From assembly GCA_963828735.1 (NCBI GenBank), contig CAWHFW010000002.1, positions 192,001 through 256,000 of the forward strand: DNA of 64,000 nt, read 5' to 3'. A program made the position numbers. Positions 39,001-45,000 of the stretch are shown here, in pieces. Numbering within the stretch: the stretch's first letter is position 1; each line of letters starts with the position of its first letter. The stretch comes from an uncultured Gemmatimonadales bacterium. Lineage in GTDB: Bacteria > Gemmatimonadota > Gemmatimonadetes > Gemmatimonadales > GWC2-71-9.

Positions 39001-42000
39001 AGCCCGGCGCTCGCGAGCGTGGAGGCCCAGTACCAAAGGGCGGGCGCCGGCTTTCCGCCGAGCAGCTCGAGGGTGCGCGCGAGCCGTCCCTGCGCGACCT
39101 GATGCTCCCCCCGCTTCAGGGCCACGACGCTCCAACCCAGCATGATCCGCGCGTCGTCGCGCGCGCGGCCGGCGGCATCGCCGAAGGCGGCCTCGGCCTC
39201 ATCGAGGCGGCCTAGGCGCTCGAGCGCGTACCCCAGGTTGTGGAGTGCGGCCGGCTTGGCGCCCGCCGCGCCGGCGGCCTGCCGGAAGGCGGTGGCCGCC
39301 TCCTCCCAACGCCCTTGTCGCACGGCGATGAGGCCGAGGTAGAACGGCGCGCTCGCGTCCGCGGGCCGCAGCTCGGCGACCCGGCGGAACTCCCGGAGCG
39401 CCTCGTCCAGCATCGCGGCTTTGTAGAAGGCGATGCCCAGGTTGCGATGCTCGTCCACGCGACCGTCGTTCACCTTCGGCGCGGCCGGGGCCGAGGTGCC
39501 CACCCGGTGCGCGAACCCCGCCGTGATGAGTCCGAAGAGCGCCTTCCCCACCTCGAATTCCACCAACCCGGACTCGTCGATCACCGCCTGGACGTCGCGC
39601 GTCCCGTCGAGCAGCCGGATCAGGCGTCGCTGCTCGGCCGACAGTTCCGGCGCCGACTCCCCGAGGTGAGCGGGGTCCACCGAGAAGATGAGGTCGAAGG
39701 ACGGGATCTTCTTCTCGATCAGGCTCCATTCGTCGACCCGCCGGGCGCCCTCGAGCAGCAGGAACTCGGGGTTGATGCGCACGAGGAAATCCTCGCGCTC
39801 CGGATTGACGCCGGCCTCGAAGTTGAACGTCCCCGACGTCCAGGTGAACAGGTAGTAGACAGCCTCCTCGATCTGGAGGCGGATGTGGCTCTCCAGGTCC
39901 TCCCGGCTCACGAAGCCGAGCTCGACCAGGATCTCGCCCAGCTTGTGCTCGCGGTCGCCCTCCTGGCGATCGATCGCCTGCTGGAGCTGCTCGGCGCTGA
40001 TGCGCCCGCCTCGCAGGAGGATGTCGCCGAGCCGATCGCGGCGGTTCACGATCGCCGCGTAGACGATGTGGCCTTCCTCGAAGTAGATCGTGCCGAAGTT
40101 GTGTCGGTCGGCGAGGGCCAGGCACCCGGTCCGCCGCCCGAGGAACAGCAGCTGGATCACGTCGGGAAGACTCGCTTCCTTGAGGCTGCCCTTGATCGCC
40201 ATCAGCGCCACTCCTCGACGACGCGATCGGCGACCGCGGGCCACTCCCACACCATCTTCTCGCGGCTGCGGGTGGCGCTGGTGCCCGGGGCGACGATGCC
40301 GCTCGAACGGCCGGACGGCTTACGTGGTGCCGGCGCGGTGGCCGCGGGCTCTTCCAGGACCTCGCGCGCGAGCGCCGCGGTGGCCGGCGCGCCGCGCGCT
40401 GCGGCGGCCTCGAGGACGCGCTGCAGGAGGGCCTGTGCGGCGCGGATCGAATCCGCGGGGCGATCGGCGAGATAGGCCGCGAGGTCCGGCTCGGGAGCGC
40501 CGAGCTTGGTCTCGAGGTCGCGCGCCAGTACGCATTGGCGCACCGATGCGTCGGGCTGGGGCAGCTCGACCACCAGCCCGCCTTCGAGGCGCGACCGGAG
40601 GCGGGGCTCGACCCCCGTCAACTCGGCTAACGGGGCCGCGCAGCTGAACACGAGCTGGCGGCCGCCGTCCATGAGCGCGTTGAACAGGACGAAGAGCTCG
40701 TCCTGGGTCCGATCCTTGGCGGCAATGAGGTGGACGTCGTCCAGCAGGAACGCGGCCGCCCGGCGATAGCGCGCCCGCCAGGCCGCCACCCCATCGCGGT
40801 TGATCGCCTCGATCAACTCACCGGTGAACTCGGGCGCGCTGAGGCAGGCGATCGGCTCCCCCTGCTCGGCGAGCGCGTTGCCGATCGCGTGCAGCAGGTG
40901 CGTCTTGCCGACGGCCGGACCGCCCACGAGCACCAGCGGGTTGTAGCGGTCACCCGGATTCGCCGCGACGGCGCGCGCGGCCTCGACCACCACCCGGTTG
41001 GCCGGTGTTTCGACGAAACCCTCCAGCCGCCAGAGCGGTGACGGCGCGGGCGGCGGCGGTCCTTCTTCCCGCGCCTGCCGCAGTGCTTCTTCGGCACCGG
41101 CCAGATTCGCCGGATCGCGGAAGGCGGCCGAGCCGGCGAGCTCGGGCGCGAGCGCCTCCGCCTCCGCCTGCAGCGCCTGCAGGCGCTCCACGTCTTCCTC
41201 GAACTCGCGCAACGCGCGCTCGGGGTCGTTCACCATTTCCTGCTCGAGCAACGCCTCGAGCTGCGCGGTGCGGAAGCCCTCGCCCTGCCAGCGGAGGATT
41301 GCGGCGCTGACCCGGGCTCGCCAGGCGTCCACTTGCTGCGCGACGGTGGCGGCAATCTCGGAGAGGAAATCGTCGAACTCGGACGGGGCGGAGGCGGCGG
41401 CTGTCGCCGGCTGCCGCTCGGCGGCGACGGCCACGAGCTCCGGACGCGCGGACCGCGCGGGCTGCTCGATCTTTTCCGTCTTGTCCCCCGCGTCCGCCGC
41501 CGCCGTCGCCTCTCCGCCCACCAGCATCTGCGCCTGCTGGGCCGTCAATGGCTTCTCGCTCACCGCCTGGAACGCGATGATCCGATTGAGCCCGCCGAGC
41601 AGCTCGCGGACGTTGTCGATGTCCAGCGCCGCGACGGCCTCGAGCACGCCCTCGCCGAACGTGGCGCGGCGCTCGTCCGCCTTCCGGCGGAGGATCGCGA
41701 CCCGCGTCTCGTAATCGGGCGCGGCGACGTCGATGATGAGCCCGCCCGCGAATCGGCGGATCAGCCGATCGTCGAGCGCCTCGATCTCGGCGGGCGGCCG
41801 GTCGCTCGTGAGCACGATCTGGCGGCTCGCCGTCTGGAGTGCGTCGGTGAGCCGAAGCAGCTCGGCCTGCATCTCCCGCCGGTGGGTCAGGAACTGCACA
41901 TCGTCCACCAGCAGCAGGTCCACATCGAGGAAACGCTTGCGGTAGGCTTCCCCATGCCCCGCCGCGATGGCCGCGTGAAAGGCTTCGACGAACTCGTCCA

Positions 42001-45000
42001 GCGTGAGATACTCGACGGCGAGACGCGGATTGATGGCGCGGGCCGCGTGGCCGATCGCCATCAGCAAATGCGTCTTTCCCAAGCCTGGCCGGGCGTACAC
42101 GAAGAGCGGGTTGTACACCGTGCCGGGCGACTCCGCGACGGCCTTCGCGGCGGTCACGGCAAGCCGGTTGGCCGCCCCGACCACGAGCGTGTCGAACCGA
42201 TAGAGCGGGTTGAGCGTGACGGTCACGCGACCGGGCTCCCGACCGCGAGGCGCTTGAGCACGAGCTCCGAAATGCCTCGCAGCGTCTCGAAGACGCCGCT
42301 CCCGTGCAGGGCGTCGGCCCCATAGCTCGGCACCGCGCGGAAGTTGAGCGCGTCGTCCATCTCCTCCTGGGAGAGGATCAGGTCGCCGGGGAGGTCCTGC
42401 TTGTTGTACTGGAACACGACCGGGAGCTGGCGGACGTCGACCCCCTGCGCGAGCAGGTTGTCCTGCAGGTTCTGCAGGCTCTCGAGGTTGTCGTCGAAGC
42501 GGCGCGCCTGGCTGTCACCCACGAACACCACGCCGTCCGCCCCCTGGAGCACGAGCTTCCGGGTCGCGTTGTAGTAGCTCTGACCGGGCACGGTGTACAG
42601 CTGGAACTTGGTCGTGAAGCCGGAGATAGTTCCGAGCTCGAGCGGCAGGAAATCGAAGAACAGCGTGCGATCGGTCTGCGTCGCGAGCGAGACCATCCGT
42701 CCACGACGGCTCTCGGGCACGCGACCGTAGACGTACTGCAGATTGGTCGTCTTCCCGGACCGCCCGGGCCCGTAGTAGACGATCTTGCAGGTGATCTCGC
42801 GTGCCGTAAAGTTGACGAGGGACATGCCGGTTACCGTCCGAAAAGCGCTTTGAGACTCGCGTTGAGCTCGGTCTCGAAATTTTCCGCCAGCATCGGCGCC
42901 GGCGGTTGTTCCCGCGGCGACGCGGCGGCGAGCTGCCGCACCATCTGATCGAAGAACAGCCGCACGATTCCCACCGAGGTCTCGGGGCCGAAGACCACCA
43001 GGCCGATCCACCGTCCGCGCGGCGTCGTGAACGCGGCGAGCATGCAGCTCTGCCGCTGGCCGTGGTGCACCACGGCCTCGAACCGGGTCGCGCCCATGAG
43101 CCGCGCCAGCTCCTCGGTCGAGGCCACGATGCCCGCGCCCAGGGCGGCCGCGGTCATCACGTCGAGCGACCGCGAGAACCCGTGCTGCGCCACCACCTGG
43201 CCGGAGGATGTCATGAGCAGGGTGAGCCGGGCGGCGCTCTCGGCGAGAAACGTCTCGAGCGGCTCGACCACCCACGGCTCCAGCGCCTTCATCAGCCGAG
43301 CCGGCCGGCGGCGTCGAGCATTTCCAGCCGAGCCAGTCCCAGGTTCGCGTCCGGCCCGACCACGGCGACGAGGACCAGGTCCTCGGGGCCCAGCGCCGCC
43401 AGCACGCTGCCGCCCTCGCCGCGCAGCTGCACGAAGGCCGGCGGGCGGAGTCCGGCGCTCTCCGCGGTGCGCACGAGACGCCCCACAAGGCTCCCGGTGA
43501 GCGCGGCGGCGGCCTGGCCGTCCACCCCCTCCATGAGCTGTTCGGCAACGACCAGCCCGTCACTGGCAGCCACGACGAGCGCGCCGCGCACGCCGCGCAC
43601 GCGGGTGATCCGGTCGAGCGCCGTCTGGGTCGCGGTCATGCCTGCGCCTCGAGCCACGCTCGCGCGGCCCGCGCCGCCCGCTCGGCGAGGAGCGTGACCC
43701 TGCCCATCGGGAGCGCGGCCTCGCGTGCGGCCAGCACGACCGTGTCCGCGCTGGCGTGGGTGAGCACGACGTGGCCGTCCGGGGATTCGACGGCGATCGT
43801 GTGCCAGCTCCCGAGGCCCAGCAGGCGGGTCGCGCGCGCGGCCTCGCGGGACAGACCCGCGAGCTGTGCCGCCACCCGGTCTCCCGCGGGATCGCCGGGG
43901 TCCTCGGCCAGGCGACCACCGAGGCGAAGCCCGTTGGCGTCGACCAGCAGGAGGCCCTCCTCCCCATCGTCCAGGTCCTCGAACGGGCCCGCGACCGTGT
44001 CGTCCACCGGGGCGACGGGCGCGAGGGGCTGTTCCACGACCGGAGCCGGTGTCGCGGCTGGCGCCGGGGCCGTGCGCGCCGCGTCCCGGAGCGCGGGTCC
44101 GAGGCGGGCGATCGCCTGGCGGATCGAGGGGTCGTCCGGGTCCACGTCCAGCGCGCGCTGCAGGTGTTCGAGCGCGGCCGTCGTCTCGCCGGCGCGGAAA
44201 TAGAGGAAGGCGATTCCCTTGAGTGCGCTGGTCCGCATCGGGTCGAGCTGCAGCGCCGATGCCCAGGCGTCGAATGCGCCCGCGAGGTCGCCCTGATCGC
44301 TCAGGATCCGCGCCATCAGGTCGTGAGCGTCGGCCAGCCCCGGGTAACGGGTCAGCCCTCCACGTGCCACCTTGTGCGCCGCGTCGAGCTGGCCGCGGCC
44401 GCGCAGCGCTTCGGCGAGCTCCAGGAACGCGAGGCTCCCCGGCTCTTCCGCGATGCGAGCGGTCAGACGGCGGATGTCGTCAGTCACGGAACCGCTCCAG
44501 CTCCCTCATGATCGTCTCCGCCGACTGACACAGCCGTGCGACGCTCGGGCTTTCCGCCTCTTCGCCCGGTGTGCGGTCGCCCAGCCGATTCCAGGACGCC
44601 CACAGCTCGAGCGCCTCGCCGAAGCGCCCGATGGCGGCGTAGCACAACCCCAGCAGGCGGCGCGCCTCGGGCATGAGGGGGTCGCTCCGCAGCACTTCCT
44701 CGAGGGCGCCGGCCGCGAGGTCGTACTGGCCTCCGGCCAGCGCCTCCCGCGCGGGCACCAGGAGCGCGGCCAGATCGCGTCCCGGCTCCGCTTCCTGGCC
44801 GGGGTGCGCGGGATCATCGAGTACCACGATGCCTGCGTTGGTGAGCCCGTATACCGTTCGCGCCACTTCGAACTCCGAGCGGCCCAGCATCTCGGCCAGC
44901 GAGTGCAGATCGCGGGCCCCGTCGACCGCCGCGAGCACTTCCCACTCGAAGGGAACGAGATCGAGCGTCTCGCTGCCCTGGGACTCGGGCGCGGGCAGTC

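Follow-up and report, generated by a model that had tools for sequence, protein, structure and literature searches.

Among the AAA+ ATPases of the initiator clade, the DnaC/IstB-type proteins are not unfoldases but adaptors under the control of ATP, and Hda (or HdaA), a relative of DnaA that retains only its domain III, consists of one module with an N-terminal clamp-binding motif and brings about regulatory inactivation of DnaA, placing an arginine finger in the ATP site of another protein. MglA/MglB polarity modules with their effectors are described in Myxococcus, Thermus and Bdellovibrio, and MglA groups 1 and 5 are associated with PATAN genes in the portion used here of PMC4316618; in the parts of the literature searched, no AAA+ ATPase was found in these modules. 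In cyanobacteria, PATAN provides the output of a chemosensory-type pathway, with PixE, PixG and LsiR as PatA-type regulators, and in Synechocystis it binds PilB1 and PilC, according to the sections consulted of bioRxiv 10.1101/2021.06.11.447907. What, then, might a DnaA-like ATPase be doing among MglA, PATAN and chemosensory genes?

The question is raised by a window of 64,000 nucleotides, the whole stretch of DNA analysed, from a soil-dwelling member of the phylum Gemmatimonadota. Its minus strand holds an intact open reading frame with a GTG start at 40202..42226, encoding a tandem DnaA-domain-III AAA+ protein of 674 residues, P0001. Pfam detects two Bac_DnaA modules and neither DnaA_N nor Bac_DnaA_C, and a six-frame search of the genome gives the modules E 2.5e-51 and 1.1e-39, which bears out an earlier note on this DNA in its description of two domain-III modules lacking domains I and IV. 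The note was also right that both modules keep a P-loop and a DDV motif (GKTH at 50 and 440, DDV at 108 and 496) and that the true dnaA lies elsewhere, on a different contig, where it encodes 460 residues with DnaA_N, Bac_DnaA and Bac_DnaA_C all present; this gene and the two modules of P0001 account for the only three Bac_DnaA matches in the whole genome. The closest structure is domain III of Bacillus subtilis DnaA (8bv3_A; TMt 0.93, rmsd 1.5). Sequence and fold alike identify both modules as DnaA domain III, with 41% and 31% identity, respectively, to domain III of the organism's own DnaA. A weak Pfam match to IstB_IS21, far below that to DnaA, recalls the DnaC/IstB type as a fellow member of the initiator clade, but no helicase or transposase partner is found near P0001. 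Unlike DnaA, P0001 is without domains I, II and IV, and should therefore not bind DnaA boxes; instead its module is duplicated, a three-helix domain and a C-terminal tail have been added, and its gene lies in a signalling operon rather than at the origin. More than 100 full-length homologues (77-85% identity) and more than 100 clusters of relatives at 50% identity rule out a chance arrangement. Tandem copies turned up almost exclusively in the Gemmatimonadota, and a literature search found no name for the family; in sequence databases its members are annotated 'chromosomal replication initiator protein DnaA'.

The two modules differ in how their ATP sites have been kept. Module 1 (residues 1-238, 41513..42226, minus strand) comprises the AAA+ core and lid with the full set of DnaA-type motifs, and its ATP site is invariant, with K51 and D108 present in 59 of 59 sequences of alignment A5 and R207 in 56; its own box VII arginines are found in only 41-42 of the 59. 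Module 2 (residues 400-626, 40349..41029, minus strand) also has a core and lid, yet 47 of 57 tandem genomic loci no longer encode its GK[ST], and in nearly all of these the DD motif has gone too (three retain it). The second box VII arginine of module 2, R546, is nonetheless present at all 57 loci and in 52 of 59 sequences of A5. P0001 itself has Walker A and B, box VII arginines and the sensor 2 arginine, although in its module 2 sensor 1 has changed from TSD to SCA; two active sites are thus possible in this protein, since Walker A and B of module 2 are intact here. The AF2 model of P0001 (mean pLDDT 88.7) leaves the placement of one module against the other unfixed (pTM 0.52), so that an arrangement in which module 2 would supply an arginine finger in cis rests on conservation counts drawn from related, non-independent sequences.

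Between the modules the earlier note had seen a single linker of about 230 residues, and an intervening stretch is indeed there, but it is not one linker. The lid of module 1 extends to about residue 238 and is followed by a disordered segment (residues 239-279, 41390..41512, minus strand; pLDDT <50), which varies in length and sequence in alignment A2, and then by a conserved, family-specific three-helix domain (residues 283-388, 41063..41380, minus strand). In the latter F287, G317, L323 and P372 are near-invariant, and the domain is detectable in 37 loci, both with and without mglA. Modelled alone it reaches a pLDDT of 86.2; it matches no Pfam or NCBIfam family, and a structure search returns generic helical bundles only (best Z 6.2). 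Finally, a disordered stretch (637-655) leads into a C-terminal tail of the form E-K-x-V-W-x-W-P ... E-E (residues 654-674, 40205..40267, minus strand), of low to moderate pLDDT in the AF2 model, in which W662 is found in 57, P663 in 50 and E656 in 52 of the 59 sequences of A5. It is missing from proteins that end in a fused REC domain (P0225).

The most constant feature of the surroundings is the gene that follows. It encodes a PATAN(DUF4388)-TPR protein of 538 residues (38586..40202, minus strand; DUF4388 3.2e-38 together with TPRs in Pfam), whose ATG at 40202 overlaps the stop codon of the ATPase gene by 1 nt. The ATPase gene is directly followed by a PATAN-TPR gene in 55 of 57 related loci, the two exceptions being contig ends with less than 350 nt of downstream DNA, and a manual comparison of the 38 published genomes that gave both positions shows the pair adjacent in every one, about 10-160 nt apart. 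Within the PATAN domain two tandem 24-residue MshEN-type motifs are predicted to bind c-di-GMP (39873..40034, minus strand): NCBIfam NF053729 scores 49.5 bits against a cut-off of 38 over residues 73-121 of the long ORF, the sequence matches the motif as given in the portion used of its published description (PMC5013675), and none of 11 PATAN sequences deviates at the key L, G, L and Q positions. The only other PATAN domain of the genome is in the same operon, in a second PATAN-TPR protein of 349 residues (44480..45529, minus strand; DUF4388 3.5e-31) that scores 37.3 bits with NF053729, slightly below the cut-off. PATAN here is unlike the cyanobacterial PatA type in being fused to TPR repeats and not to a receiver domain, in carrying MshEN-type motifs and in being paired with a DnaA-like ATPase, of which it is an invariant neighbour.

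The same partnership is seen across genomes. Among 200 other genomes of the phylum, with a strong match set in this analysis at E<1e-60, PATAN is present in 129 of the 129 with a strong ATPase match, and the ATPase never occurs in the sample without it. In family f7 only two of 23 genomes are positive, the identical two for both proteins (G116 and G159), and both are absent from G043, G085, G089 and G091. Ten sampled genomes have PATAN with merely a DnaA-level match, nine of them in f2 (G036, G047, G052, G072, G074, G084, G114, G168 and G184) and one in f1 (G078), and PATAN thus does not need the ATPase. No ATPase gene was found in most of the genomes sampled from the class's other families or from other classes, which is roughly the distribution first claimed.

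In the window the pair sits within a long minus-strand run, in the order CheW, CheY, CheA, CheC, TPR, PATAN-TPR, TPR-Roadblock, Roadblock, MglB-like, MglA, ATPase, PATAN-TPR, CheR, CheD, CheB, CheW, TPR. Pfam confirms this run of Roadblock, PATAN, TPR and Che genes: the upstream chemosensory block of CheW, CheY, CheA and CheC (48225..51743) and its downstream counterpart of CheR, CheD, CheB and CheW (35340..38589), a large TPR protein of 895 residues (45533..48220; Pfam TPR families), a TPR-Roadblock protein of 283 residues (43636..44487; TPR and Robl_LC7), a Roadblock/LC7 protein of 121 residues (43292..43657; Robl_LC7 3.8e-08) and an MglB-like Roadblock protein of 153 residues (42831..43292; Robl_LC7, with NF052242 MglB at 4.6e-10, below cut-off). 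The operon accordingly resembles described MglA/MglB modules in having MglA, a candidate MglB-like GAP, Roadblock, TPR and Che components, and departs from them in an ATPase translationally coupled to mglA. One and the same syntenic backbone, ileS - rluD - ATPase - PATAN-TPR - Peptidase_MA_2, is found with or without the Che and Mgl blocks; in locus L011 the Peptidase_MA_2 family directly follows PATAN-TPR, and in the window its member lies at 33596..34441 (minus strand; Pfam). The core pair is flanked by divIVA-ileS-rluD and rsmH-ftsI, beside cell-division clusters.

Together these features suggest that a replication-type ATP switch has been reused for cell signalling. We propose, at about even chances, that P0001 is a non-replicative ATP switch or scaffold, peculiar to the Gemmatimonadota, which works with its PATAN-TPR partner and, in the window's lineage, does so within a Che-MglA/MglB module. 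The working unit would be a single composite ATP site, in which module 1 would bind and hydrolyse ATP and module 2, on its flexible 40-residue linker, would bring in an arginine finger. The two halves would open or close with nucleotide state, altering how the three-helix domain and the W-x-W-P tail, a candidate for docking on TPR, are presented to partners. The downstream PATAN-TPR protein, with its putative c-di-GMP motifs, would be the obligatory functional partner, presumably by physical binding. In this lineage the two-gene core shares its operon with a dedicated MglA/MglB/Roadblock set and a full Che pathway, and the ATPase is likely to contribute to turning chemosensory, GTPase and c-di-GMP inputs into an output in polarity or type IV pili, the pilus being suggested by analogy with cyanobacteria. 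The genome (97.5% complete) gives no match to flagellin and has seven T2SSE-type ATPases.

The earlier note had favoured another partner, reading P0001 chiefly as an effector or regulator that acts directly on MglA, with MglA-GTP docking on the helical domain (281-334) and the ATPase acting on the polarity switch; we consider this rather unlikely. Translational coupling is certainly present, the stop codon of mglA (42223..42825, minus strand; 200 residues, with Arf/small_GTP matches) overlapping the ATPase start by 4 nt (GTGA), and a 164-nt contig from an RNA library, 96% alike, crosses this junction, albeit with DNA carry-over possible. The GTPase is also a paralogue dedicated to the operon: it shares 68-81% identity with the MglA next to the ATPase in 12 related loci, against 53-57% with the stand-alone MglA of other genomes, its P-loop, R53, T-V-P-G-Q and N-K-x-D are invariant, and a genome with the context has two MglAs where four without it have one. 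In the 13 loci with Che/Mgl context mglA is always directly upstream, but as a conserved partner it falls short, these being 13 of the 57 loci, in a sample seeded with a divergent subgroup so that 13:44 is not a frequency. The other 44 have no MglA match in the entire locus (27 of them include the full 8 kb upstream) and yet the helical domain and tail persist in them, as does the neighbouring PATAN-TPR gene; nor was any MglA or Roadblock fusion seen among the best 150 representatives (11 of odd length or layout scanned in Pfam). The earlier structure model was put to a controlled re-test. A prediction of full-length ATPase with GTP, Mg and MglA, using alignments for both proteins, gave 0.46, 0.42 and 0.38 (median ipSAE 0.42, best of three controls 0.00; verdict 'weak support'), the runs sharing at least 62% of contacts at a partner pLDDT of at least 78, but the placement of the helix on switch I/II was not reproduced, the prediction reporting no interface. 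In calibration, which applies only roughly here since the run included a small molecule and alignments of our own, 116 of 157 solved complexes and two of 215 mismatched pairs attained the mark; no more than 18 of the 157, but both of the passing mismatches, did so at 0.60 or less, and for this reason the tool rates a pass in that range as likelier false than true, except for a guess already probable at the outset. The ATPase may bind MglA directly.

As a counterpoint to the switch model, the DnaA-like arginine finger of module 2 fits action on DnaA equally well, resembling as it does the donor of a finger to another protein's ATP site. P0001 might then be an Hda-like regulator, whose module 2 finger or DnaA-like module 1 surface would engage DnaA-ATP, stimulating hydrolysis or capping DnaA oligomers and so tying initiation to signals from c-di-GMP, polarity or division. 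We hold this to be improbable. In its favour, the box VII of module 2 approximates the DnaA consensus and persists in loci whose module 2 has a dead ATP site, no separate Hda-like gene is present in the genome, the core pair lies beside division genes, and the NCBIfam models place both modules nearer DnaA than Hda (257.7 against 72.5 bits for module 1, 192.8 against 94.6 for module 2). Against it, the TIGR03420 Hda score, 162.4, stays below its cut-off of 194.8. Moreover, P0001 has two modules where Hda has one, a pattern search found no beta-clamp-binding motif in it, and there is no N-terminal extension, module 1 beginning at residue 5. Its linkage and fusions are with signalling parts and not replication genes, relatives combining MshEN with a DnaA module and a further DnaA module, TPR with a DnaA module, or the tandem with REC, and the families and classes that mostly lack the gene replicate with ordinary DnaA. 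That P0001 is a decaying or duplicated dnaA remnant with no function of its own, as its database name might invite one to think, has next to no likelihood and is refuted by conservation, given the intact 674-codon frame, the numerous and diverse full-length homologues, the invariant catalytic residues, the conserved family-specific domains and a confidently predicted fold.

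The tandem ATPase represents a new, phylum-restricted family in which the ATPase fold of DnaA is reused in a pair with a PATAN-TPR protein, a pair to which we infer a signalling function, and in this genome the pair is embedded in an operon of Che, MglA and MglB genes. Known DnaA-type ATPases are either replication proteins, as with DnaA and Hda, or loaders and helpers such as DnaC and IstB. The gene is confirmed as a minus-strand open reading frame at 40202..42226 that starts with GTG and encodes 674 residues. As the earlier note had described, the protein combines two Bac_DnaA modules (PF00308, 7.4e-92, in two stretches) with no Pfam match to either DnaA_N (PF11638) or Bac_DnaA_C (PF08299). 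Both of these flanking domains are present in the genuine DnaA of the genome (Bac_DnaA_C at 5.3e-27), which is encoded on another contig with DnaA_N, Bac_DnaA and Bac_DnaA_C, and the two modules together with this true dnaA make up exactly the three Bac_DnaA matches of the whole genome. Module 1 is 41% and module 2 31% identical to domain III of the genome's own DnaA. The motifs of module 1 comprise a GKT at residues 50-52, DD at 108-109, the box VII arginines R154/R158 and the sensor 2 arginine R207, while those of module 2 in this protein are GKT 440-442, DD 496-497, R542/R546 and R595, with a sensor 1 of S-C-A in place of the T-S-D of DnaA.

An AlphaFold2 model of the tandem ATPase, based on 59 sequences, shows a confident fold (mean pLDDT 88.7), with the mutual position of the two halves left unfixed (pTM 0.52). 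It divides the chain into module 1 (residues 1-238), a disordered linker (239-279), a helical domain (283-388) that runs into module 2 (about 400-626), a second disordered stretch (637-655) and a short C-terminal tail of low confidence (656-674). The best solved structural match is domain III of Bacillus subtilis DnaA (8bv3_A, TMt 0.93, rmsd 1.5). Beyond DnaA, the whole-model fold search gave only double-AAA matches of the p97/Rix7 type at an rmsd of 16-26, which amounts to nothing more specific than the presence of two AAA domains. Family conservation was read from alignments of 32, and then 59, tandem proteins, and besides the modules the larger alignment reveals two family-specific conserved parts, namely the helical domain (F287 in 54/59, G317 in 55/59, L323 in 57/59 and P372 in 57/59) and the C-terminal tail (E656 in 52/59, W662 in 57/59 and P663 in 50/59). 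The helical domain, which reaches a pLDDT of 86.2 when folded alone, has no family in Pfam or NCBIfam, no usable match in the ESM Atlas and no Foldseek match at E <= 0.001; its VIA-align matches were generic helical bundles (best Z 6.2), a level that is rated uninformative for helical folds. At the positions that we take to be the single-strand DNA contacts of B. subtilis DnaA, the basic position varies across the tandem family.

Is the protein better regarded as a DnaA or as an Hda? Against the DnaA equivalog model TIGR00362, with a cut-off of 343.9 bits, the whole protein scores 446.6 bits, and it does so because the scores of the two modules add up, since singly they reach 257.7 and 192.8 bits and both fall below the cut-off. 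With the Hda model TIGR03420 (cut-off 194.8) the whole protein reaches 162.4 bits and the modules 72.5 and 94.6, so that by these NCBIfam scores both modules lie nearer to DnaA than to Hda. The beta-clamp-binding motif of Hda follows the consensus QL[SD]LF / QLxLxL, and a pattern search with this consensus found no such N-terminal motif in the tandem ATPase. What is shared with Hda and HdaA is the arginine finger of box VII, represented here by R154/R158 and R542/R546. More than 100 full-length homologues are 77-85% identical, and those records that carry names list the organism as Gemmatimonadales and the product as either 'DnaA/Hda family protein' or 'chromosomal replication initiator protein DnaA'; many further tandem proteins of about 650 residues, at 33-68% identity, emerged when 1.84 billion cluster representatives were searched. 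The JGI product name for most homologues is likewise 'chromosomal replication initiator protein DnaA', which constitutes an annotation trap. Since the tandem ATPase passes the cut-off of the NCBI equivalog for DnaA and bears the name DnaA in many records, it can mislead the prediction of origins as well as the counting of genes in Gemmatimonadota.

The conserved neighbour of the family is the gene that follows it. An alignment of 16 sequences was too diverse for a locus scan, with no stretch sufficiently conserved, and a closer set of nine was used instead to scan a single genome from each species, which returned 64 loci; 57 of these hold a tandem gene, a collection that is biased towards a divergent subgroup because of this seeding, and the remaining seven are the ordinary dnaA of other phyla. 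The 57 loci are labelled Gemmatimonadota, Gemmatimonadales or Longimicrobiales, bar one 'uncultured bacterium' (L006) and one Planctomycetota contig of 2.5 kb (L030). A PATAN-TPR gene directly follows the ATPase in 55/57, with a PATAN part that is 44-68% identical to that of the window, and the two loci that do not have it (L010 and L018) end within 350 nt.

The same association is apparent in 200 other genomes of the phylum, a sample that includes the unpublished G057 and G182 (family f1), G157 (f2) and G097 (f8). A strong ATPase match was set by us at E<1e-60, genomes read as having dnaA only giving a single match of 1e-46 to 1e-58; as the sampled relatives are not independent, the counts are given without statistics. 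Strong ATPase and PATAN (PF14332) matches are found, respectively, in 94/96 and 95/96 genomes of f1, 26/38 and 35/38 of f2, 3/3 and 3/3 of f3 and 4/4 and 4/4 of f4; both stand at 2/23 in f7, at 0/11 in f6, at 0/2 in f9 and at 0/19 in the other classes (f10-f12). The four genomes of f5 and f8 give ambiguous ATPase matches (about 1e-55 to 1e-57 plus extra hits) alongside PATAN in 1/1 and 3/3. With the unpublished genomes removed the ATPase counts become 92/94 for f1 and 25/37 for f2. The two positives of f7 are the same genomes for both genes (G116 and G159), four genomes (G043, G085, G089 and G091) have neither, and a strong ATPase match without PATAN occurs in 0/129. Furthermore, in all 38 published genomes where both positions were available, manual comparison places the PATAN gene approximately 10-160 nt downstream of the ATPase. 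The reverse case, PATAN with only a DnaA-level ATPase match, is seen in nine genomes of f2 and in G078 of f1, where the lack of a strong match may be an artefact of a contig end. These ten (G036, G047, G052, G072, G074, G084, G114, G168, G184 and G078) have one to three PATAN matches each, and some of their PATAN reading frames are of the short, 349-residue kind, so that the PATAN/Mgl module found upstream may occur where the ATPase/PATAN-TPR pair is missing.

In the window, the minus strand reads from upstream to downstream as CheW, CheY, CheA, CheC, a TPR protein (895 aa), a PATAN-TPR protein (349 aa), TPR-Roadblock, Roadblock, MglB-like, MglA, the tandem ATPase, the PATAN-TPR partner (538 aa, 38586-40202), CheR, CheD, CheB, CheW, TPR, Peptidase_MA_2 and TPR, and then rsmH and ftsI. 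The tight packing that had been reported holds, with the mglA stop and ATPase start overlapping by 4 nt and the ATPase stop and PATAN-TPR start by 1 nt. By Pfam, the gene order in four loci that have the pair but no MglA match (bare-core loci) is DivIVA, IleRS, an RluD-type synthase, ATPase and PATAN-TPR, followed downstream by Peptidase_MA_2 in L011 and by a response regulator of the sigma-54 type in L011, L020 and L043. This backbone recurs in the window (ileS 53513-56821, lspA, rluD 51622-52509 and Peptidase_MA_2 33596-34441), with Che/Mgl blocks flanking the pair on both sides. As the backbone is shared with and without these blocks, the two-gene pair is the core, to which the Che/Mgl blocks were added or from which they were lost; they resemble segments either inserted into a housekeeping backbone or deleted from it. 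This backbone, of divIVA, ileS, lspA and rluD on one side and Peptidase_MA_2, rsmH and ftsI on the other (51622-56821 and 30159-34441 in the window; also L011, L020, L035 and L043), places the pair between two clusters related to cell division.

Four soil metatranscriptome runs offered just short contigs on parts of the stretch, 92-99% alike, and these assembled contigs are of a kind from which level, strand and transcript ends are unreadable. The mglA/ATPase junction is bridged by a single contig of 164 nt (42186-42349, run X18, 96% alike), for which DNA carry-over is possible, and at the ATPase/PATAN junction the contig extends by fewer than 31 letters to one of the two sides. A depth peak at 40784-40940 and an apparent joint at 40909/42094 are due to the dnaA-like genes of other organisms, through conserved P-loop regions. 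Three further RNA libraries also hold short contigs on parts of the ATPase and PATAN genes, again with DNA carry-over possible.

The PATAN assignment of the partner is secure (PF14332 at 130.9 bits against a cut-off of 25), and its PATAN domain contains two 24-residue motifs of the MshEN type at 39873-40034 (minus strand). In PMC5013675 the motif pattern is described with a spacer of 5 residues; the motifs of the partner fit this pattern, except that the second copy has K in place of R and that the spacer is 6 residues long. The key motif positions are invariant in 11/11 PATAN sequences from both locus contexts, and the model NF053729 scores 49.5 bits (cut-off 38) on the partner. The motifs are consistent with putative c-di-GMP binding by the partner. 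They form a helical insertion of the PATAN domain. The second PATAN gene of the operon (44480-45529) scores 37.3 bits with NF053729, just below the cut-off, and these are the only two PATAN domains of the genome. In terms of output, the genome (97.5% complete) has no flagellin match and encodes seven T2SSE-type ATPases, of the PilB/PilT/GspE kind, two of them adjacent, and therefore the large Che operon is probably not steering flagella. For Synechocystis, bioRxiv 10.1101/2021.06.11.447907 reports that a PATAN domain binds PilB1 and PilC.

The earlier note had proposed the tandem ATPase as an effector or regulator of MglA, with residues 281-334 lying on the switch I/II face of the GTPase; its observations stand, and its interpretation stands in part. 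The upstream MglA matches only Arf in Pfam (1.8e-06) but carries the hallmarks of the MglA family, namely the P-loop, the intrinsic arginine, T-V-P-G-Q and N-K-x-D, with G24, K25, T26, R53, T78-Q82 and N141-K142 invariant in 17 sequences. Prediction of the ATPase-MglA complex was repeated with alignments for both chains, GTP, Mg and three controls, and gave ipSAE values of 0.46, 0.42 and 0.38 (median 0.42; best control 0.00); at least 62% of contacts agree between the runs, the pLDDT of the partner is 78 or higher, and the output gave no interface. This was rated as weak support: the mark is reached by 116/157 solved complexes and 2/215 mismatches, counts that are rough for this setup, of which only 18 of the 157 complexes and both passing mismatches lie at or below 0.60. 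Because this prediction is joined by the 4-nt overlap and a dedicated MglA paralogue, direct binding may be regarded as a fair possibility in this lineage. MglA binding cannot be the family-defining function, since mglA together with MglB, Roadblock, PATAN and Che genes lies ahead of the ATPase in 13/57 loci and no MglA match is present within the locus in the other 44 (the full 8 kb upstream being available for 27 of them), a ratio that is not a frequency because of the seeding. Four bare-core genomes have one MglA each, located elsewhere (46-57% identical to that of the window), and one genome with the full Che/Mgl context has two. According to the available text of PMC4316618, MglA groups 1 and 5 are encoded close to PATAN genes, and that text makes no mention of the ATPase alongside them. 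In one bare-core locus, L043, an MglB-like reading frame (7498-8001, 36% identical to that of the window, without a Pfam match) lies directly upstream of a tandem ATPase of 897 residues, with no mglA.

The two modules have fared very differently with respect to their ATP sites. In module 1, conservation over 59 sequences is complete or almost complete for Walker A, Walker B and the sensor 2 arginine, K51 and D108 being present in 59/59, but its own box VII arginines are retained in only 41-42/59. In module 2, GK[ST] is lost in 47/57 loci (43/44 bare-core and 4/13 with the full context), nearly all of which have also lost DD, yet the second box VII arginine (R546) is kept in 57/57. A single composite site would suit this pattern, in which one module has an invariant P-loop while the other, otherwise degenerate, has an arginine finger that never varies. 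The module 2 finger could alternatively act on another molecule, DnaA included, for which the same conserved arginine would serve and to which its DnaA-like character is equally suited. If the composite site is preferred, the P-loop of module 1 would be completed by the arginine finger of the mostly 'dead' module 2 to generate a single-chain, single-site ATP switch, which with its c-di-GMP-binding partner would form a signalling pair. The C-terminal tail, whose short conserved motif follows a disordered stretch, might dock into the TPR groove of the partner encoded next door. In one lineage a Che pathway and the dedicated MglA GTPase would feed the pair, which would then act upon cell polarity or pilus activity, and the ATPase may signal back to DnaA by way of its DnaA-like arginine finger, linking motility or polarity signalling to replication initiation. 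The joint reading, of an initiator-clade AAA+ protein turned into a single-site switch in an undescribed pair with a c-di-GMP-binding PATAN-TPR protein, MglA/Che-fed in one lineage and possibly reporting to DnaA, is tentative and, taken as a whole, somewhat unlikely.

Full-text literature searches, read at the level of listings and abstract openings, brought up no publication that deals with a DnaA-like ATPase alongside PATAN, MglA or Roadblock. If the reading is true, a family wired to PATAN, TPR, MshEN, REC and MglA would carry the initiator clade over into signal transduction, PATAN as a domain that is still poorly understood would gain a defined enzymatic partner, and bacterial small-GTPase polarity circuits would acquire an ATP-driven element. 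Fusions among the relatives include a tandem protein in which a C-terminal receiver domain replaces the tail, many proteins of Candidatus Sumerlaeota and Hydrogenedentota with TPR arrays ahead of a DnaA module, and eight clusters of giants (1,867-1,999 aa; P0201, P0211 and P0304-P0309) with MshEN ahead of one DnaA module and a second some 1,400 residues on. Non-initiator uses of the DnaA domain-III module seem to be widespread and undescribed. In the giants MshEN is N-terminal and a glutamate-rich repeat stands at the end, and a partial close relative, itself without an MshEN match, is named Candidatus Fermentibacteria. The many proteins that join long TPR arrays to a domain-III module span 1,200-2,480 aa (P0263, P0273 and P0313-P0421), and several of those from Sumerlaeota and Hydrogenedentota add a primase-type CHC2 zinc finger, zinc ribbons or HEAT repeats.
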